Shown: positions 1,985 to 31,022, counted from the stretch's first letter. The stretch is DNA of 36,323 nucleotides from a virus (IMGVR_UViG_3300038317_000069:1-36323); one strand, 5' to 3'. Made by a program: numbers and translations. The notes: generated from the sequence alone by a model not told the origin.

Positions 1985-3631
1985 TTGAAGCCTATTAGAA
2001 TTATAGATAAAGATTTTATTTTATTAAGCGAAATAGATGATTATGAAAGCCTAATATGGGCTAGAAAATGGCATAGACCAGGGGAGTTTGAATTACATAT
2101 AAATATAAATAAGCAAAATACTCACACTTTGCAAAAAGAAAACATTGTACTATTTGGTGATAAAGCAGGAGTAATAAGGCATAGAGAAATAGTAATTGAT
2201 GAAAGTGGCAAGGGCGGAGAAACTTTACTTATCAAAGGTTCCTCGCTTTCTTCTTTAGTAGGTAGGAGAATAACATTGCCACCAATAGGCAATGCCTATG
2301 ATGCAGTAAATGGGAATGCAGAAACTGTATTAAAGCATTATGTAGATGTGAATTGTGTTAATCCAGCAGATGCAAACAGAAAAATACCTAATTTAATTAT
2401 TGCGCCTAACTCGAATAGGGGTATTAATTTAAAATACCAAAGTAGGCTAAAGCAGTTAAATGAAGAATTAGAAAAAATATCAATGATAAGTGGATTAGGT
2501 TGGGATATTTCGATAGACATTGAAAATAAGAAGTTTGTGTTTGATGTAATGGAAGGCAATGATTTAACAACTAACCAGACTGAGAATAATCCTGTAATAT
2601 TTAGTATAGATTTTGACAATATAAAAGGACAAACATATATAGATAGTGATTTGAATTATCGTAACCAAGCCTATGTAGGTGGACAAGGCGAAGGGGTAGA
2701 CAGGAGTATAGTAGAAATAGGGAATAACCTACAAGGGTTAGATAGGCATGAGGTATTCATAGATGCAAGGGACATAGAAAATGAATTAGATTTGCCAACC
2801 AGAGGACAGCAAAAGTTATTGGAAATGGCAAGGCTGCAATCCTTTGAAAGTGAAATTTTGAATAAAGGTACATTTGAGTATGAGAAGGATTGGAATTTAG
2901 GAGATATAGTTACAGTTGTAAATCCTAAATGGGGAATTACAATGGAAACTAGGGTAATAGAAGTAAGGGAAATATATGAACCTAGTGGCTTTAAATTAGA
3001 AGCTGCATTTGGTAATACAATTCCTACCTTAATAGATAAGATAAAGAAAGAAATAGATATGCCACTCATTGAGAATAAAACTAAGTTATCGCAACTTGAA
3101 AATGATGGCGGGTATATTAAAAGTGAAGAAGTAGTAAATATTGTAGATGGTATTGAAATTGGTGGAAGAAATTATTTAGTGAATTCAAGTTTAAAAACTA
3201 ATAGCGGACCATTTAAGCCTAATCAAAATGTAACATTGTCAAATCCTAATGGAGAATATCTAAAAGTTTATTCTAATCAAAGTTCTAGTACACCTGGGAT
3301 TATTATAAGGAATTTTGCGATTGAGGATGCCGAGTATACCGTATCTTTTGACGTGAGAGGATTTGGCGGAGTTAAAACAGTTGGTGTTTGTTTATTAGGT
3401 CTTGTTAAAGAAGTGAATGTTACAGAAGAATTTCAAAGAAAATTTGTTACACTTCGACCAAGTTTTACTCAGGATTGGTTTTTAATTTATTGGTCAAATA
3501 AAGCTGTTGGTGAAGGGTTTGAAATAAAAAATATTAAATTGGAAAAAGGTAATAAACCTACAGATTGGACTCCAGCATTGGAGGATATAGTTTTGAGAAT
3601 TGAGGCTATAGAACAACAATTGGGTATTTAA
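1985..3631 (+). CDS. Tail tip protein, Gp37-like N-terminal domain plus C-terminal carbohydrate-binding-like module (candidate receptor-binding protein)
   Basis: TTG start. N-terminus IRIIDKDFILLSEIDDYESLIWARKWHRPGEFELHI resembles siphovirus Gp37-like proteins. C-terminus ends KLEKGNKPTDWTPALEDI, a motif common at the end of Gram-positive phage fibre/CBM domains. Position is after Dit. Confidence 0.7.
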   Translation: MKPIRIIDKDFILLSEIDDYESLIWARKWHRPGEFELHININKQNTHTLQKENIVLFGDKAGVIRHREIVIDESGKGGETLLIKGSSLSSLVGRRITLPPIGNAYDAVNGNAETVLKHYVDVNCVNPADANRKIPNLIIAPNSNRGINLKYQSRLKQLNEELEKISMISGLGWDISIDIENKKFVFDVMEGNDLTTNQTENNPVIFSIDFDNIKGQTYIDSDLNYRNQAYVGGQGEGVDRSIVEIGNNLQGLDRHEVFIDARDIENELDLPTRGQQKLLEMARLQSFESEILNKGTFEYEKDWNLGDIVTVVNPKWGITMETRVIEVREIYEPSGFKLEAAFGNTIPTLIDKIKKEIDMPLIENKTKLSQLENDGGYIKSEEVVNIVDGIEIGGRNYLVNSSLKTNSGPFKPNQNVTLSNPNGEYLKVYSNQSSSTPGIIIRNFAIEDAEYTVSFDVRGFGGVKTVGVCLLGLVKEVNVTEEFQRKFVTLRPSFTQDWFLIYWSNKAVGEGFEIKNIKLEKGNKPTDWTPALEDIVLRIEAIEQQLGI

Positions 3632-8026: not shown

Positions 8027-9057
8027 TTATTTTGAGTTGAAAATCATATTATCTAACTTGTCTGAAGTCTCCCTTTCCATGTCATCCAAGACATGAGAAT
8101 ATAAATCTAAAGTAGTAGAAATATTTGAATGACCCAATCGTTCACTTGCAATTTTAGCAGGTATATTTGATTTAAGCATAAGAGTTGCATTTGTATGCCT
8201 TAGGTCATGTAATCTTACATGTTTTAAATTATTCTTTTTTATAAAATCGCCAAAGGTTCGACTAAAAGTAGCAGGGTTGATTAGATCTCCCATTTCAGTT
8301 GTAAATATAAAATTGCTATCTTTATAATATTTGCCTATTTTAAGTTTATTCCCTTTTTGTTTTAGTTCTTGTTTCTTTAAAAGAGCAATAATATTATCTG
8401 ATATAGGGATTGCCCTTGTGCTTTCTTCAGTCTTAGGTTCTTTTAAAATTAATTCTGTACCATCATCTCCACCACGAACTAAATTTCTTTGTATAGATAT
8501 AGTTTTGTTTTTATAGTCTATATCTGACCATTTTAAGGCTAAAAGCTCCCCACGCCTTAATCCAAGGAATAGTATTATTGAAATAGGAACTTCCAGCCTG
8601 TCCCCTTCTAGTGCCTTAAGAAGTATTTTTATTTCATCTATATTTAATACTTCAGCTTTATACTTTTTGCCTTTGGAACTTCTACATGGTCAGCAGGATT
8701 AATTTTTATTAATTGCCACTCCTTAGCGTCCTGAAGAGCTTTTCTTAACATTCTATGATGATGTAGCACAGTTTGATTAGACAATGTTTGAAGTTTTAAA
8801 TTGTAGTATTTCTGTAAGTGCAAAGGTTTTAATTCTGCTAGTTTTATATTTCCTAGCTCTGGTATTATGTGGTTTTGCATCATGGATTTGTAACCATATA
8901 CTGTAGTGGGTGAAAGATTATGTTTTCTTTGTTCAATCCAATAGTTTAAATATTCACCTAATGTATCTGTGGAAGGTATTATAAAAGTGCCTTGCTCTAA
9001 CTCATAAAGTATTTTATTTAGGTCAGTTTGTGCCTCTTGCCATGTTGTTAATATTCT
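8027..9057 (-). pseudogene. int: Tyrosine recombinase (phage integrase) remnant: no canonical start, arm-binding domain missing, -1 frame break at an A5 run
   Basis: Three minus-strand pieces:
- 9057..8644 reads TWQEAQTDLNKILYELEQGTFIIPSTDTLGEYLNYWIEQRKHNLSPTTVYGYKSMMQNH...NPADHVEVPKAKS, then a stop.
- The frame 8689..8027 continues KKYKAEVLNIDEIKILLKALEGDRLEVPISIILFLGLRRGELLALKWSDID...
- That frame then reads HVRLHDLRHTNATLML...GHSNISTTLDLYSH, which gives the catalytic R, HxxR, H and Y.
The two frames join only if GCAAAAAGT (+ strand 8664-8672) had one more A. An in-frame TAA at 9060-9058 lies 10 nt inside the repressor gene. Confidence 0.85.
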
Positions 9058-9440
9058 TTATCCTCTTCATCCTCAATAGCCTTTATAATCCTAATAATTT
9101 GTTTAATACCATTAGGGGATAAGTCCTTAGTTTGTTTAAATAATAATTGCAAATCTTCTCTTTCTTTTAATTCATTCCAGAACTCAAACAATTCAGGGTC
9201 ATCTTCTACAGCATTAGTTATTTCATCTGATGTATTTCTTATGTTTGATATACCTAGGAGATAATCAACACTTGTACCAAAAAAGCCTGCTAGCTTTATA
9301 AGCTTTTCATAATCAGGCTGCTTTCCTTTTGTTTCATATTCTGCTATTGTTGCCCTTCCGACACCTAAAATATCAGCAATATCTTGTTGTGTAAATCCTT
9401 TTTCTTCTCTTAATGACTTTAATCTTTCGCTAAACATCAT
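9048..9440 (-). CDS. CI-like repressor (XRE-family HTH)
   Basis: LKSLREEKGFTQQDIADILGVGRATIAEYETKGKQPDYEKLIKLAGFFGTSVDYLLG is a classic XRE HTH. Transcribed divergently from a Cro-like gene. RBS AAAGGGGTGA. Confidence 0.85.
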   Translation of the reverse strand: MMFSERLKSLREEKGFTQQDIADILGVGRATIAEYETKGKQPDYEKLIKLAGFFGTSVDYLLGISNIRNTSDEITNAVEDDPELFEFWNELKEREDLQLLFKQTKDLSPNGIKQIIRIIKAIEDEEDKEY

Positions 9441-23990: not shown

Positions 23991-25427
23991 TTGATAGATT
24001 ACAATGAACTACTAAAAACAGAACTGGAAGGCGTATATGGAGACTTTCTAGAAAAGATAAATAAAATAAATGGATGGTATGAAATTTATGAAGGTAAACA
24101 GGAATGGAATACAGCTGATGGATTAGACTATACTCCTACTAAGAAGGTAACCAACATAATTAAAAAACTAATAGACACACGTGCAAGATTTATGTTTGGT
24201 AGAGAACCTTATTTTGATGTAAGACCAGTACAACAAGATGCAAAAGAATCCACTACTTACAAGGATCAGGCACAAGAGAAGGAGAACTTACTATACAAGA
24301 TACTAACGGAGAACAAGTTCCACAGTAAGCTCCTGAAAGCTAAAAAGGATTGTTCCATTGGTGGTAAAGTTGCAATAAAACTATGGGGGCATAAGGATGT
24401 AGGATTAAAGATAATATTTAGTCCAGCACAAGAGTTTTTCCCACAATTCAATTTAGATGATGTGGACCAGCTAGAAAAAGTGGTCTTTTTATATGCCATG
24501 AACAATGAATCCTTACCTGAAAAACAGAGAATTAAAAAACAAGTATGGGAATTGGTTAATGGTAGATGTATTCTCAATGAGTCTACGCATGATGGCAGAG
24601 GGAATATAGTATCAGTAGAATATCAAGACTACAACACAGGTTTAGACTTTATTCCAGCTATTATCATTCAGAATGGTGGGCTTACAGGAGAGACAGAAGG
24701 TATTAGTGATGTAGAGCAGCTATGGGGGAATCAGGATTCATATAATCGTTTAACATCTGATGATATTGACGCATTAAAATTTCAGATGTTTGGTCAAGAT
24801 GTAATCACTGATGCAGCAGAGGATAGTTTAAAAAATATCAAAATTGCAGCAGGGGCTATGATAGATTTACAAACAGATATGGCACAAGCAAGTGAAGGCA
24901 GACAAGCTAAGATGGACAGGCTTGAGAGTGGATTTAGTTACAAAGATAAATTTGAAGATACAGTAAACAGAATTAAGAATGACATGTATGATACTTTAGA
25001 TGTACCTAATGTAAGCTTAGAGCAGCTTAAGGGATTAATGCAATCAGGTAAATCTATGAAAGCTTTATACTGGGGGCTTATGGCAGTATGCGACGAAGAT
25101 TGGACAGAATGGGGTCCAGCATTAGAGCAAATGGTTGACTATATATTCCGCATGGTTGATACTTATAACCTTTACAATGCTAGAGCTATAGCTAAGTATG
25201 AAACTACTTTAGAAATTGAGCACACTTATCCAATACAAGAAGATGAGAACGAACAAAAGAAAGTCGATATGGACGAAGTAGTGTCAGAAGTTAGGTCCAG
25301 GAAGTCGTATATGAAAAAATGGGGAGAATATGAGGATACTGATTCTGAATTAGAACAGATACAGTTAGAAAAGCAGATGATGCAGGATAGTTACACACAA
25401 GATTTGAATATGAACCTTGAAGAATAG
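23991..25427 (+). CDS. Portal protein (SPP1 gp6-like)
   Basis: 478 aa, immediately after terL. N-terminus ...INGWYEIYEGKQEWN...KKVTNIIKKLIDTRARFMFG. TTG start after GAGAAGGTGA. Confidence 0.85.
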   Translation: MIDYNELLKTELEGVYGDFLEKINKINGWYEIYEGKQEWNTADGLDYTPTKKVTNIIKKLIDTRARFMFGREPYFDVRPVQQDAKESTTYKDQAQEKENLLYKILTENKFHSKLLKAKKDCSIGGKVAIKLWGHKDVGLKIIFSPAQEFFPQFNLDDVDQLEKVVFLYAMNNESLPEKQRIKKQVWELVNGRCILNESTHDGRGNIVSVEYQDYNTGLDFIPAIIIQNGGLTGETEGISDVEQLWGNQDSYNRLTSDDIDALKFQMFGQDVITDAAEDSLKNIKIAAGAMIDLQTDMAQASEGRQAKMDRLESGFSYKDKFEDTVNRIKNDMYDTLDVPNVSLEQLKGLMQSGKSMKALYWGLMAVCDEDWTEWGPALEQMVDYIFRMVDTYNLYNARAIAKYETTLEIEHTYPIQEDENEQKKVDMDEVVSEVRSRKSYMKKWGEYEDTDSELEQIQLEKQMMQDSYTQDLNMNLEE

Positions 25428-25437
25428 GTGATACTCT

Positions 25438-27147
25438 ATGAATGAATATGAAAGAATAGCATTAGAAACAAGGAAAAAGGTTTCTAAACTAACATTAGAG
25501 CAACAAGGTAATTTACTTAGGCTATACGAGGATACAATTGAAGATTTAGCAAGTAAAGCTGCAGCTAGTAAAGATAAATCACTTACACAAAGATGGCTAT
25601 TAGATTATATAAAAGAACTAACTAAGGCTAAAAAAGAGTTAATTAAAGAAATCGAATCTAATACCAAAGGAGCTATAGGTAAAGCTGCCAAAATAGGAAC
25701 TGAAACAGAACAACAGATAATGTCAGAGATTTTTAAATATGCTGGAATAGATACAGGAGAACATTTTGATACTATGTTCTCACAGGTCCAGGATAAAGTT
25801 ATAAAAGATATAATTTTAGGGAACCTTTATAAAGATAATAAAACCTTATCTAGTCGAATATGGAATTATGGAAATGAGTTCGAAAAGGATATTCAATATG
25901 TTATCAATAGAGCTATTTTAGAAAAAAAATCAGCAATAGAGTTAGCAAAGGATTTAGAGAAATATGTAAAGGATCCAGCTAAAAGGGACACCACTTGGGG
26001 AAGATGTTACCCTCACTTGAAGAATAAAAAAGTAGATTATAATGCTATGAGGTTAGCTAGAACTTCAATTAATCATGCATATCAGACGAGTACAATTCAA
26101 AGCAGCAGTATGAATCCATTCGTAGAAGGAATTGAATGGAGAAGTGCATTAATCCATGGCAGGACATGTGAACTATGTCAAGAAAGGCATGAGCAAGTAT
26201 TCACTAAAGATGACGTTCCTTTGGATCATCCAAACGGTCTTTGCACAATGGTGCCTTATATACCTAAATCCTTGGATACTGTAGCTGATGAGTTAAAAGG
26301 TTGGTTAGATGGAGAAGATAACCCAAAACTAGACAGCTGGTATAATGAATATGGAGATTATTTTAGTGGGTTAAACAAAGAAAAATGTGGTATAATTAAT
26401 ACAAGGAAAGATAAAGCTGAAAGAGAACAAAACTTTGAAAAAATAAAACAGCAACAATGGACAAAAACAATAAAAGATGATGATAAAGATGAACTATTTA
26501 AATACTTTGAGAGAGCAACAGATGAAGAATTAACCTTCTGGGAGGAATATGGTGAATTAGTTCAAGGAGAATTTTATGATCCAAGAAATAGTGGCTACTA
26601 TAGTCCAGCAAGTAAAAAAGTTAATTTAAACATAACAAAAATTGATAATAGAAGTAAAAGAATTGGTGATACTAAGGATAATAGGCTATTCTTCCATGAA
26701 ACTGGGCATCTATTTGATGATAGAGTTTTAAGAAGTACAGGTGGAAAGAAAGTAGTAAATGAACTTACAGAACTAAAGGATAAGCTTGAGAAAGATTATT
26801 TAAACTATGCTAATAAAATACTAAAAAATAATAAATTAAAAGGATTAAAGAGCTTATCTAGGCTTAGCAAGGAGCAAAAATCAATACTTGGGCAGGACTT
26901 AAGAGAAGATGAGCATTTAAAAAATGCAATTTCAGATATAGTTGAGGGATTAACTGATGGAAGAGTTGTAGGTGGATATGGACATGGTAAAAATTATTGG
27001 AAATATCCTATGGCATTAGAACAAGAAACAATAGCACATTCGTTTGAGGCCAAGATGATGAAAGGGGAAAGAAAAGAAGTGTTTACAAAATATTTTCCAA
27101 ATGCTTTTGAATATTTTAATGATTATATTAATAAATTAGTGAGGTGA
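25438..27147 (+). CDS. MuF / SPP1 gp7-like minor head protein with a ~280-aa C-terminal extension bearing an HExxH motif
   Basis: MuF core: NAMRLARTSINHAYQTSTIQ...GIEWRSALIHGRTCELCQERHEQVF...DHPNGLCTMVPYI (to about nt 26265). The extension contains FFHETGHLFD (HETGH = 26695-26709), and later GGYGHGKNYW...EQETIAHSFE. Confidence 0.8.
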   Translation: MNEYERIALETRKKVSKLTLEQQGNLLRLYEDTIEDLASKAAASKDKSLTQRWLLDYIKELTKAKKELIKEIESNTKGAIGKAAKIGTETEQQIMSEIFKYAGIDTGEHFDTMFSQVQDKVIKDIILGNLYKDNKTLSSRIWNYGNEFEKDIQYVINRAILEKKSAIELAKDLEKYVKDPAKRDTTWGRCYPHLKNKKVDYNAMRLARTSINHAYQTSTIQSSSMNPFVEGIEWRSALIHGRTCELCQERHEQVFTKDDVPLDHPNGLCTMVPYIPKSLDTVADELKGWLDGEDNPKLDSWYNEYGDYFSGLNKEKCGIINTRKDKAEREQNFEKIKQQQWTKTIKDDDKDELFKYFERATDEELTFWEEYGELVQGEFYDPRNSGYYSPASKKVNLNITKIDNRSKRIGDTKDNRLFFHETGHLFDDRVLRSTGGKKVVNELTELKDKLEKDYLNYANKILKNNKLKGLKSLSRLSKEQKSILGQDLREDEHLKNAISDIVEGLTDGRVVGGYGHGKNYWKYPMALEQETIAHSFEAKMMKGERKEVFTKYFPNAFEYFNDYINKLVR

Positions 27148-27151
27148 GTTT

Positions 27152-27406
27152 ATGACTGAATTTAGTTGCATAGGAACAGGTGACGAACGATCCCAAAAGG
27201 AGTTATGGGGCATTATTGACGAATATAAAGACAAGTTTGACACAGATGAAGCAGGAGCTGAGCTTATATTTGTAGAATTGCTTAAACCAGAAAGACAAGC
27301 CAATGAATATTTAATTTCAATGTATAAGCAATGTATTAAAGAAAACAGGACAGTAGATAAAGTAATTAAATATGATTATGAGCTTAGGGATGATGTATTG
27401 TATTAA
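27152..27406 (+). CDS. Hypothetical small acidic protein (84 aa)
   Basis: Starts 4 nt after the MuF stop, with RBS GTGAGGTGAG. No motif recognised. Confidence 0.6.
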   Translation: MTEFSCIGTGDERSQKELWGIIDEYKDKFDTDEAGAELIFVELLKPERQANEYLISMYKQCIKENRTVDKVIKYDYELRDDVLY

Positions 27407-27441
27407 AAGCACTTACTAGAGACATAGTAGGTGTTTTTATT

Positions 27442-27792
27442 ATGTTTAAATTGGAGGAAAGCATGGAAGAAAAGCTAAAGAAATATAAAGAGATATTAAA
27501 TTTACAGAACTGGGATATACAAGTAATTGAGGAAGATTCGCTTGAAACTGAAGGCATGAGTAAAATTCTTTTCAATGATTATAAGGCCATAATTAAAATT
27601 AAAAGAGAATTATCAGATGTAGAAAAAGATAAGACACTAATACATGAATTATTACACTTAATCCATAGAGATGAATCGGATCTTATTTCAGATAATTTAA
27701 GAGACGAGGCTATAGCTTCTATGTACGAGAGATTTCATGAGAGATCTATTGAGCAGATGGCAAAAATTATTTACAAATTATGCAACTCATAA
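27442..27792 (+). CDS. Small HExxH protein (ImmA/IrrE M78-like metallopeptidase core, putative)
   Basis: TLIHELLHLIHRDE (HELLH = 27643-27657), preceded by a strand-rich segment as in COG2856-type domains. An alternative start is 27463. Confidence 0.5.
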   Translation: MFKLEESMEEKLKKYKEILNLQNWDIQVIEEDSLETEGMSKILFNDYKAIIKIKRELSDVEKDKTLIHELLHLIHRDESDLISDNLRDEAIASMYERFHERSIEQMAKIIYKLCNS

Positions 27793-27808
27793 TTAGAGTT
27801 GCTTTTAT
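27782..27808 (+). terminator. Rho-independent terminator after the MuF-associated gene pair
   Basis: GCAACTC (27782-27788) / GAGTTGC (27796-27802), then TTTTATTA. A second hairpin TTATGCCC/GGGCATAA lies at 27808-27839. Confidence 0.65.
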
Positions 27809-27898
27809 TATGCCCTTTTTTAGTATTGTTAGGGCATAAAGAAACAAGAACCCAAGACTGGCACTGACCAGTATAAAAAAGTATGGAGGTAATAGAAA

Positions 27899-28468
27899 AT
27901 GGAATGGATTTTAAAACTTATTGAAAAACACACAAAAGATGGAGTGCTAAACCAAGAAGCACTAATGAAAGACATTAACAAAGAGTTTCCTAAAAATGCA
28001 GTACCAAAAGAGACTTACAATACACTATCAGAAACCAAGAAGAAGCTTGAAAAAGATATTGCAGATAGAGATGAGCAATTAGAAGATTTAAAAAAAGTTG
28101 ATGCAGAAGGATTAAAAGCAAAAATTGAAACATTGCAATCAGAAAATAAGACATCAAAAGAGAAATACGAAAAAGAACTAAAGGATCTTCAACTAACTAA
28201 TGCCATTAAGTTGGCCATAAACGGTAAGGTCCATGATGAGGATATAGTGTCTAAACTAATAGACAAAGAAAAAGTTATTATAGGCGATGATGGAAAGATA
28301 GTGGGACTGGATGAGCAGATAAATTCGCTTAAAGAAACAAAAGGTTTCTTATTTAAAGAAGAAGGTCCTGAGGGTACGGGAGGAAGTTTAGGGAATGGTA
28401 ATAAAGGGAGGCAAGATCCTCCAGTAGAAGACTTAGGCAGTGCGTTGGCACAATATTATAATAAATAA
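27899..28468 (+). CDS. Scaffolding protein (phage GP20-like)
   Basis: Coiled-coil 189-aa protein directly upstream of the capsid gene. Contains ...NAIKLAINGKVHDEDIV...KETKGFLFKEE. Confidence 0.8.
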   Translation: MEWILKLIEKHTKDGVLNQEALMKDINKEFPKNAVPKETYNTLSETKKKLEKDIADRDEQLEDLKKVDAEGLKAKIETLQSENKTSKEKYEKELKDLQLTNAIKLAINGKVHDEDIVSKLIDKEKVIIGDDGKIVGLDEQINSLKETKGFLFKEEGPEGTGGSLGNGNKGRQDPPVEDLGSALAQYYNK

Positions 28469-29490: not shown

Positions 29491-29742
29491 ATGGCTAAAA
29501 TATATGCACCAAATAGAGGGTACACCGGCAAAATAGCTGGTGTATCTTTTGCAAATGGAGAAGGTGAAACAGAAAATGAATGGTTAATACAATGGTTTAA
29601 GAATAAAGGTTATAAAGTAGTAGAAGAAAAAAAATTAGAAGATTTAACTGTAAGTGAATTGAGAAAAATTGCAGCAGGAAAAAATATAGAAGGTTATTCT
29701 GATATGAGAAAAGCAGAATTAATTAAAGCCCTTGAGGGGTGA
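29491..29742 (+). CDS. Small head-associated protein with a Rho_N/SAP-like C-terminal motif
   Basis: LTVSELRKIAAGKNIEGYSDMRKAELIKALE matches the Rho N-terminal-like helix-hairpin. Confidence 0.6.
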   Translation: MAKIYAPNRGYTGKIAGVSFANGEGETENEWLIQWFKNKGYKVVEEKKLEDLTVSELRKIAAGKNIEGYSDMRKAELIKALEG

Positions 29743-30380: not shown

Positions 30381-30702
30381 GATTACCAAGAATACTTTCG
30401 ACAATAAGGCAGTAGAGGCTACAGTAAGAGCTGCTATAGGAGTATATGCAGATACTGCAGCTAAGAAAATGGAAGTAGAGGCTAAACGAAATGCTCCTTG
30501 GACAGATAGGACCAGTAATGCTAGGAATAGTATCCGTAGTGATTTTGGATGGAAAGGTAAACATGCAGTAATATCCCTTAGTGGTAATACAAATTACTTT
30601 CCATATCTAGAACTAGCTATGGAGAAGAAATATGCAATATTGGTACCCACTATACAAAGAAATGCTCCTGAGGTTTTAAGGGCATATAGAAAGTTGGTGT
30701 AA
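30370..30702 (+). CDS. HK97 gp10-like tail-head joining protein
   Basis: AKKMEVEAKRNAPWTDRTSNARNSIRSDF...YFPYLELAMEKKYAIL resembles the HK97 gp10 family. Confidence 0.65.
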   Translation: MGFKITKNTFDNKAVEATVRAAIGVYADTAAKKMEVEAKRNAPWTDRTSNARNSIRSDFGWKGKHAVISLSGNTNYFPYLELAMEKKYAILVPTIQRNAPEVLRAYRKLV

Positions 30703-31022
30703 TGATGGAAGATTTATTATGGATTATATTAGCACATTACATTGCAGATTATCCATTGCAAGGGGATTTTCTTGTACAAACAAAGGGTAAATACTGGTAT
30801 AGCTTACTAGCCCATTCAATAATTTATGGGTTAACTATAGCATTGACATTAAAGTTGTTAGGGTTATTTGCTATATGGAAGGCGGTAGTTTTGGTAGCAA
30901 GTCACATGATCATTGATTATAAAAAAGCTACTGCTAAAAACAAAGACAAGTCATTAACGACATATCTTTATATAGACCAAGCTTTACACATAGCAATAAA
31001 TATATTTTTGGTGGTGGTTTAG
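30702..31022 (+). CDS. Polytopic membrane protein (DUF3307-like) embedded in the connector block
   Basis: 106 aa with 3-4 hydrophobic helices. The N-terminal LAHYIADYPLQGDF resembles the H-x3-D-x2-LQ signature I associate with DUF3307. Its start overlaps the preceding stop (TAATGATG). Confidence 0.6.
   Translation: MMEDLLWIILAHYIADYPLQGDFLVQTKGKYWYSLLAHSIIYGLTIALTLKLLGLFAIWKAVVLVASHMIIDYKKATAKNKDKSLTTYLYIDQALHIAINIFLVVV

Follow-up and report, generated by a model that had tools for sequence, protein, structure and literature searches.

What is a metallopeptidase signature doing in a phage head-morphogenesis operon, and why does it occur there twice? The question is raised by a 36,323-nucleotide (nt) viral sequence, IMGVR_UViG_3300038317_000069, the whole of which is referred to below as the window. 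In this sequence, the gene for a MuF-type minor head protein continues well past its conserved core into an extension with an HExxH motif, and it is followed by an acidic open reading frame (ORF) of 84 amino acids (aa), a 116-aa ORF with an HExxH motif of its own, and the scaffold gene. An earlier reading of the sequence (the original prediction) took everything from the extension to a hairpin at 27782-27802 as a single candidate effector/immunity cassette delivered by the virion, and it placed all of the ORFs, both motifs and the hairpin correctly. Comparison with related phages divides the region into two modules. Module A comprises a linker, a predicted gluzincin domain and the 84-aa gene, and it probably turns an ordinary short MuF protein into a polymorphic toxin with a candidate inhibitor. 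Module B carries the 116-aa gene and is a separate accessory element. The features of the MuF gene and of module A are:

25438-27147, + strand: MuF-type ORF, 569 aa, starting directly after the portal gene
25438-26364, + strand: MuF/SPP1-gp7-type minor head protein core, residues 1-309 (phrog_1657 and blastn breakpoint)
26365-26541, + strand: residues 310-368, where module A begins; Lys/Glu-rich linker and N-terminal helix of the swapped-in module
26542-27147, + strand: predicted zinc-metallopeptidase domain, residues 369-569 (~200 aa), distantly related to anthrax lethal factor
26695-26709, + strand: HETGH motif (H420/E421/H424) of the metallopeptidase domain
26716-26718, + strand: D427 of the metallopeptidase domain
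26932-26937, + strand: S499-D500 of the metallopeptidase domain
26983-26985, + strand: H516 of the metallopeptidase domain
26995-27000, + strand: Y520-W521 of the metallopeptidase domain
27025-27027, + strand: E530 of the metallopeptidase domain, predicted third zinc ligand
27152-27406, + strand: 84-aa acidic ORF
27403-27443, + strand: hairpin and U-rich tail at the end of module A, in between the 84-aa ORF and the 116-aa ORF (-18.5 kcal/mol, z = -6.0)

The MuF extension is a conserved domain with many carriers

Residues 1-310 of the MuF protein match phrog_1657 ('head morphogenesis') with an E-value of 3.8e-79. Matches to PF04233 (Phage_Mu_F; 24.0 bits against a cut-off of 29.6, E = 6.9e-5) and TIGR01641 (24.4 against 39.65) are sub-threshold, yet with phrog_1657 matching so strongly, the protein is best regarded as a divergent MuF-type protein and not as a non-member. 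The gene also has the position of a MuF gene, with an SPP1-type portal gene upstream and the scaffold and major capsid genes downstream. In three relatives with a short MuF protein (loci L003, L004 and L026), blastn homology to the window stops at 26363-26364, which places the end of the MuF core at about residue 309 (nt 26364). That the ORF runs on past its core had been foreseen in the original prediction; the core end had been put at about 26265 and the length of the extension at about 280 residues, and the latter is corrected here to ~260, with the folded domain at residues 369-569. Residues ~327-368, just ahead of the domain, align with the equivalent part of other MuF-protease proteins.

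A word-index protein search with the extension returned one match only, its sensitivity being too low, and homologues were collected by an exhaustive HMMER search of residues 285-569 against representative clusters (50% identity). This search recovered 597 clusters at E ≤ 1e-3, 122 of them at E ≤ 1e-10. Throughout the 597 the domain is C-terminal, and the carriers are mostly 500-700 aa long. Motifs were counted in the 150 best-listed homologues plus P0001 (151 sequences). An HExxH motif, nearly always HExGH, is present in every representative that spans the site (136/136), and the remaining 15 of the 151 are short fragments that contain the C-terminal half alone. The original prediction hinged on conservation of these residues, and in 72 full-length proteins H420, E421 and H424 are indeed invariant, together with D427, D500, H516, W521, E530 and A533, while G423, S499, Y520 and P554 are near-invariant. 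No model in Pfam or NCBIfam covers the domain. Among deposited phages, megablast of the region gave no match, tblastn of the extension gave two records only, and tblastn with a Staphylococcus-type version of the domain gave none.

Fifty-two of the 72 full-length relatives match one of two head-protein models at their N-terminus (Phage_Mu_F in 35, Phage_min_cap2 in 17; E ≤ 0.01). Judged by such comparisons, the same protease domain rides on unrelated N-termini, as in polymorphic toxins: normalised scores between the window protein and those of L006-L008 are 0.50-0.52 for the domain and 0.04-0.05 for the MuF N-terminus. Among the 150 best matches there were no carriers belonging to type VI secretion, type VII secretion or contact-dependent inhibition systems, and one carrier was an RTX-repeat protein. 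This protein, P0072 (575 aa), consists of ~16 RTX calcium-binding nonapeptide repeats followed by the metallopeptidase domain (residues 399-568), an architecture which indicates that the domain is also used by a probable type-I-secreted protein. The domain was also found in gene 0032 of Streptococcus phage Javan351 (L040, 1447-3216; E = 8.7e-32, motif HEFGH), which is annotated merely as 'head morphogenesis protein, SPP1 gp7 family'.

Remote kinship with anthrax lethal factor

An alignment of 45 domain sequences was used both as the query of a PDB profile search and to build an AlphaFold2 model, which replaced a single-sequence model of residues 285-569 with a predicted local distance difference test (pLDDT) score of 43.6. 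The best PDB match is the catalytic fragment of anthrax lethal factor (LF; 2l0r, E = 0.0039), and PPEP-1/Zmp1, likewise a member of family M34, is a weak second. The profile alignment pairs ffHEtGHllDd with fIHEFGHAVDD of LF and lekEaiAhmfe with nEAEFFAEAFr, with E530 falling on the third zinc ligand of LF (E735) and A533 on A738 (ExxA). A third metal ligand had been anticipated downstream of HExxH, and the invariant E530 is a good candidate for it. The alignment-based model (pLDDT 96.7) contains short beta strands, an HExxH helix (47-61), a helical insert and a Glu helix (158-173), and the motifs come in the order known from M34, with the HExxH helix, Y520 and the predicted Glu ligand E530 on a second helix. 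When this model was submitted to Foldseek, the top 18 PDB matches were all LF (E = 0.25-1, probability up to 0.91, template modelling (TM) score 0.35-0.40), and the sole strong matches in BFVD were two 'minor capsid proteins' of uncultured phages, 630-644 aa in length. The original suggestion of an M34/LF-like zincin is therefore upheld by the motif layout, the PDB profile and the Foldseek ranking, but not by the Pfam ATLF model (PF07737), against which the window protein scores E = 1.9 (8.6 bits, cut-off 27.4) and which matches 1/72 relatives (E = 0.008). The MPTase-PolyVal model (PF18818) likewise gives no match to the window protein and matches 1/72 relatives (E = 0.007). On this evidence the extension is a genuine zincin (gluzincin) domain by sequence, with its catalytic residues intact, a zinc site predicted from motif conservation and the AlphaFold2 model, and presumably catalytic activity; LF is its nearest solved relative, remotely, by sequence profile and by fold.

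With LF and PPEP-1 the domain shares HExxHxxD(D) on one helix and a Tyr in the loop ahead of a second helix with ExxA. The spacing of the two active-site helices differs, being ~100 residues in the window domain (a stretch that includes additional helices and the SD and GH motifs, both invariant) and ~45 in LF, and while LF is a secreted toxin, the window domain would act in an intracellular phage delivery context. Zincin metallopeptidase domains, related to LF by HHpred, have also been described in polyvalent proteins of phages and plasmids, a phage type among them; MuF and zincin metallopeptidase are hub domains of the phage polyvalent effector proteins, in which the fusion partners of MuF are enzymatic domains whose proposed destination is the host cell (PMC5512222). 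The likeness to these proteins lies in a zincin fused to a protein that travels with DNA, in LF as the structure recovered by HHpred, and in an Asp three residues past HExxH in the phage-type clade, the window domain being similar in this respect (PMC5512222). Polyvalent zincins are described as having a conserved His where strand 2 ends, which was not seen in the window domain, however, and the window protein has a simple two-domain build, whereas polyvalent proteins are giant multi-domain ones.

Breakpoints in near relatives delimit two modules

The closest MuF relatives match residues 1-310 of the window protein alone, as far as the part present on each contig goes. L003, from a Tissierella metagenome-assembled genome, and the identical IMG/VR sequence L001 have 68% aa identity in the MuF core, and L004, from a Proteiniborus metagenome-assembled genome, has 83% over query residues 122-310. 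Together with L026, these loci cover a range of 68-83% aa identity to the window in the core, and L003, L004 and L026 all encode a short MuF. In the closest phages MuF ends four to five residues past the motif ...YNEYGDYF (~residue 313), and a small Zn-ribbon ORF and the scaffold gene follow. The portal-MuF core region is common to L003, L004, L026 and the window. On the other side of the gap, DNA homology to L004 sets in again at 27797 and extends, at 86% nt identity, across the scaffold and capsid genes. L026 is homologous over 27426-27878 at 96.7% identity, compared with 71-76% in the flanks. From the breakpoints in these three relatives, module A is 26365-27425, made up of the linker, the protease domain and the 84-aa gene. 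The region past the MuF core had been expected to be variable, and the closest phages do end MuF early and lack the window sequence from there to the region upstream of the scaffold gene. Since L003, L004 and L026 have a short MuF, the protease extension is not needed for head assembly.

The gene orders between the MuF core and the scaffold gene are:

L004: short MuF, then Zn-ribbon
L026: short MuF, then Zn-ribbon and 116-aa gene
Window: MuF-protease, then 84-aa gene and 116-aa gene

These combinations indicate that modules A and B assort independently. Between them lies the hairpin at 27403-27443, whose 3' arm and U-tail begin the stretch common to L026. The hairpin is a predicted module-boundary or terminator-like element that is conserved: its 3' arm and U-tail are also found in L026 and L004, where different 5' arms give equivalent hairpins.

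An acidic partner gene is linked to the protease domain

The 84-aa ORF starts 4 nt past the stop codon of the MuF-protease gene, behind a GAGGTGA ribosome-binding site, and its product has an isoelectric point (pI) of 4.5 (20 D+E versus 12 K+R) and no match in Pfam, PHROG or PADLOC. A domain profile from an 8-sequence alignment yielded 21 viral loci in IMG/VR. In 15 of 15 loci from L005 to L019, which match the domain profile at E ≤ 1e-25 and amount to about ten distinct lineages, an ORF of the 84-aa family lies directly 3' of the protease gene (by a partner-family profile that was built from these same sequences). The partner ORFs are 63-101 aa long and acidic (pI 4.2-6.2), abut or overlap the protease stop codon, and have the motifs Y..(F)G and C[IL]KE[NG][KR][PT] in common. 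The MuF cores of the same loci are often unrelated to that of the window. The 84-aa family is a conserved partner of the protease domain, linked to it across loci; the original prediction had seen a candidate immunity gene in its small acidic ORF. Javan351 has an 85-aa ORF (3219-3476) after gene 0032 in which the family motifs can be seen by eye, not by profile, and which is likely a divergent partner.

Orphan copies of the 84-aa family also occur away from MuF genes (L036 1971-2177, L037 1848-2054, L038 1438-1644 and L039 2039-2230). One of the orphans, P0190 (68 aa), is present on ~100 contigs, including contigs from gut metagenomes, between an APH or DJ-1/PfpI gene and genes for DUF4230 and SH3 proteins. 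Another, P0194, is 77% identical to the 84-aa protein of the window and adjoins an FAD oxidoreductase gene. At the P0190 and P0194 loci no MuF or protease remnant was found beyond ~40 nt of the 3' end of the upstream gene. Immunity to polymorphic toxins is known to involve orphan antidote genes, and the orphan copies favour an inhibitor role over a chaperone role. The 84-aa protein is thus probably an inhibitor or immunity protein of the metallopeptidase domain, a candidacy based on linkage and distribution.

Module A as a proposed MuF polymorphic toxin

Prophages of Bacillota from guts and fermenters are rich in MuF toxins. As defined by Jamet et al. 2017, MuF polymorphic toxins are limited to temperate phages, mostly of Firmicutes; toxin domains are present in 13% of MuF proteins, 20% of these (191) are metallopeptidases, and an ORF of <150 aa lies downstream in 89% of MuF toxins (PMC5576092). 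Two MuF toxins, Apk2 and Bxa, have been characterised, and in both cases immunity proteins encoded beside the toxin neutralise it (PMC11699363). Apk2 and Bxa are a (p)ppApp synthetase and an ADP-ribosyltransferase, not metallopeptidases (PMC11699363, PMC10083569), and these are the only two enzymatic MuF toxin types studied. The window locus resembles this group in having a MuF N-terminus after the portal, a swappable enzymatic C-terminus, a small ORF downstream and a temperate Bacillota phage as its carrier. More specifically, the conserved MuF N-terminus is joined to a C-terminal enzymatic domain that close relatives lack, and the ORF directly downstream, at <150 aa, is co-inherited with the toxin domain. 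By these marks the locus is a new, well-delimited instance of the known, experimentally unstudied class of MuF metallopeptidase toxins, with the window family likened to that class by class description only.

The reading that we favour, at a probability of roughly 0.6, is that module A turns a short MuF, that is, an SPP1 gp7-like minor head protein associated with the portal, into a MuF polymorphic toxin. The MuF part would dock the fusion at the portal, so that a few copies are packaged, and the fusion would leave the capsid together with the DNA. Once inside, soon after infection begins, the protease might cleave at least one cytoplasmic protein of the host, be it to take over the cell, to counter its defences or to influence the lysis-lysogeny decision. 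Until packaging, the 84-aa protein made from the next cistron would keep the protease bound and blocked in the producing cell, and orphan copies of the 84-aa family in bacterial genomes would neutralise protease that arrives with a phage. To this complete sequence of MuF packaging, ejection, host-protein cleavage and inhibition by the 84-aa protein we give the same rough probability as to the toxin reading as such; packaging, ejection, proteolysis, toxicity and inhibition are steps that we infer. The more general reading of module A as a toxin with its partner is well supported by the comparative data, among which domain identity, catalytic conservation, modularity, breakpoints and linkage are directly visible.

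Several observations weigh against this reading. No experimental work on packaging, ejection, activity or toxicity of any MuF metallopeptidase was found in the literature searched, and the likeness to LF is remote in both the Foldseek comparison and the ATLF score given above. In six prophage loci of Staphylococcus-like type (L020-L025) the domain occurs in a distant form and no partner gene accompanies it, and the partner is therefore not obligatory. Co-divergence of protease and partner in a mirror-tree/Mantel comparison (rho = 0.32, p = 0.03) is weak and no better than that of the MuF-core control. The orphan copies all lie ≤~2 kb from contig ends, so that their wider context is partly seen. 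Finally, a promoter scan found fewer sites than in shuffled controls, which gives no evidence of independent transcription of the 84-aa or the 116-aa gene, and with the 84-aa gene in a late operon without a detectable promoter of its own, protection of the lysogen is unexplained.

The toxin model can be taken further, with the protease-inhibitor pair itself caught up in an arms race. Bacteria would keep orphan inhibitor genes, at a distance from prophage head modules, as an inexpensive defence against an injected protease, and the inhibitor would in response diverge much faster than the protease. We consider such an arms race decidedly improbable as things stand. If true, it would represent a new kind of anti-phage immunity, in which the host captures a phage antidote, and it would offer the first substrate-level view of a capsid-borne protease at the start of infection.

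A different account of module A would have the protease act in cis or in the particle, trimming MuF, the linker or a head protein, with the 84-aa protein serving as a folding or loading chaperone. In packaged proteins such as DdrB of P1, metallopeptidase domains have been proposed to carry out autoproteolytic processing (PMC5512222), and cleavage could take place in the Lys/Glu-rich linker at residues 310-368. The domain is, moreover, widespread and always C-terminal in MuF proteins, and Pfam and PHROG searches recognised no prohead protease between the portal and capsid genes of the window. Even so, a role in assembly seems unlikely to us: L004, with its 86% identical scaffold and capsid genes, assembles with a short MuF and no domain, the same domain ends an RTX-repeat protein that has no head context, and partner genes that stand as orphans outside head modules are ill-fitting for a chaperone.

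As a predicted toxin, module A also provides a natural experiment, in which nearly isogenic head modules, some of them with the protease-partner cassette and some lacking it, can be compared across exact breakpoints. To this the locus adds a high-confidence domain model, catalytic residues to mutate and a partner family that includes orphans.

The 116-aa gene is an independent accessory module

The remaining question is whether the second HExxH protein belongs with the first. The features of module B are:

27435-27444, + strand: direct repeat TTTTATTATG, left copy, flanking the 116-aa gene module
27442-27792, + strand: 116-aa ORF
27643-27657, + strand: HELLH motif (H68/E69/H72) of the 116-aa protein
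27782-27802, + strand: terminator-like hairpin overlapping the 116-aa stop codon (-9.8 kcal/mol, z = -3.8), then UUUUAUUAU
27803-27812, + strand: direct repeat TTTTATTATG, right copy; L004 homology (scaffold upstream region) resumes at 27797

The probable start of this ORF is the ATG at 27463, behind GGAGG, which gives a protein of 109 aa; the same start is taken by gene callers in 2/5 related contigs shown (L032 and L033). The protein matches Pfam Peptidase_M78 (PF06114) at 23.9 bits against a gathering threshold of 22, over model positions 5-69 of 123, and the 'metallo-protease' family phrog_87 at 2.3e-8; the match to PADLOC capP is weak (1.6e-3). The ImmA/IrrE likeness that the original prediction saw here is thus retained, while the start codon it used is replaced by a more likely one. 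In the 10 members of the family H68, E69, H72, H75, D77, E78, H99, E100 and E104 are invariant, as are the segments HELLHLIHRDE and FHERSIE, and since HETGH and HELLH are both conserved throughout their families, neither is a chance motif. E100 and E104, both within FHERSIE, stand, in sequence, at the spacing expected for the third zinc ligand of M78 (~25-30 residues past HExxH). A PDB profile search with the family produced spurious homeodomain matches only.

The HExxH core is what the protein has in common with ImmA, IrrE and CapP of family M78, and NCBI calls its homologues 'ImmA/IrrE family metallo-endopeptidase'. It is only ~110 aa long and its M78 match is partial, however, and unlike M78 proteins it is encoded in a late head operon and not in a lysogeny or defence-regulation module. 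Its gene neighbours are the 84-aa gene and the scaffold gene, and no helix-turn-helix repressor of the Xre/CI type adjoins it. Two other identities were considered and set aside. Duplication of one HExxH protein from the other was rejected (hhalign probability 3.9%), and a role as prohead protease was set aside given that L004, with scaffold and capsid genes 86% identical at the nt level, lacks the 116-aa gene.

It is also conceivable that all three genes form one unit, with the M78-like protein as an additional, enzymatic component that confers immunity to the MuF protease or regulates it, much as Apk2 and Bxa each come with two immunity proteins encoded alongside, of which one is an enzyme and the other acts by binding (PMC11699363). 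The three genes lie side by side in the same orientation, and a contig with an 87% identical homologue of the 84-aa protein seems to hold an 88% identical homologue of the 116-aa protein as well (the longest contig listed is 1681 nt for both). We nevertheless regard a three-gene unit as very unlikely. The 116-aa family is absent from 21/21 other viral loci with the domain, and it is present in five loci that have neither the protease extension nor the 84-aa gene; its homologues lie between MuF/portal and scaffold in phages whose MuF is short or missing. The segment common to L026 and the window stands out against its flanks, as described above, the window contains just two copies of TTTTATTATG, which flank the 116-aa gene, and L004 has an uninterrupted empty site that reads ...GTAGGTGCTTTTATTTTGCTC... 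Proteolysis, moreover, is not reversible by a protease. Module B (~27443-27812) is a separate moron with its own hairpin and U-rich tail and is not needed for module A. The original prediction had counted the 116-aa gene and the hairpin at 27782-27802 as the last parts of a single unit; the gene turns out to be separately mobile and its product unrelated to the MuF-borne zincin, and the hairpin closes module B, not the protease-partner pair. That the extension should be a catalytically inert structural or DNA/portal-binding appendage, with the small ORFs as ordinary head-assembly accessories, is scarcely credible, for although C-terminal extensions without an assigned function occur in many MuF proteins (PMC5576092) and phrog_4728 and phrog_115, filed under 'head morphogenesis' or 'minor head protein', align end to end, every gluzincin catalytic residue is strictly conserved at 20-50% identity and close relatives do without the domain and both ORFs.

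The 116-aa protein is, by its predicted features, a minimal ImmA/IrrE-like (M78) zincin, an independent accessory module and a recurrent moron of the MuF-scaffold gap. On gene content, this gap appears as a hot spot of small accessory genes that assort independently. ORFs in the gap between MuF/portal and scaffold are found at 6920-7285 in L003, 592-876 in L004, 4675-4989 in L026, 3992-4633 in L027 and 5476-5679 in L030. A CxxC...CPHC Zn-ribbon ORF occupies the gap in the closest relatives, and in other phages its contents include a Mom-like protein with Bro-N/ANT, an HNH gene, and an Acb2/Tad1-hairpin protein (anti-CBASS/Thoeris sponge-like) beside an M78 mini-zincin. The 116-aa homologue follows the Mom gene in L027 and directly precedes the gene for the Acb2/Tad1-hairpin protein in L030.

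Genome setting

The window is the ~36-kb genome of a temperate siphophage, with tail genes and an endolysin encoded. That the phage is temperate follows from its CI-like repressor and from fragments of an integrase. Contigs of 36.34 kb that are nearly identical to the window were found in fermentation and other metagenomes, and the nearest relatives of the head genes are in Tissierella and Proteiniborus genome bins. The host is of the Clostridia/Tissierellia type, and both modules sit in the MuF-scaffold gap. The other features of note are:

8027-8293 and 8644-8883, - strand: integrase fragments of 87 and 78 aa, matching the C-terminal and middle parts of phrog_1 integrases
9048-9440, - strand: CI-like repressor, ~18 kb from the 116-aa gene
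23991-25427, + strand: SPP1-type portal (PF05133, 2.9e-30)
27899-28468, + strand: scaffolding protein (Pfam Phage_scaffold, 1.9e-43), in the region 86% nt identical to L004
28485-29477: major capsid protein, following the scaffold gene

The pair of integrase ORFs adjoins the CI-like repressor gene and may represent a split gene, a decayed one, or frameshift errors in the contig. Among the head-tail connector genes there is an ORF for a DUF3307 membrane protein (30702-31022), and L004 has one too. The major capsid gene is followed by an 83-aa ORF with a Rho_N/SAP-like domain (29491-29742).

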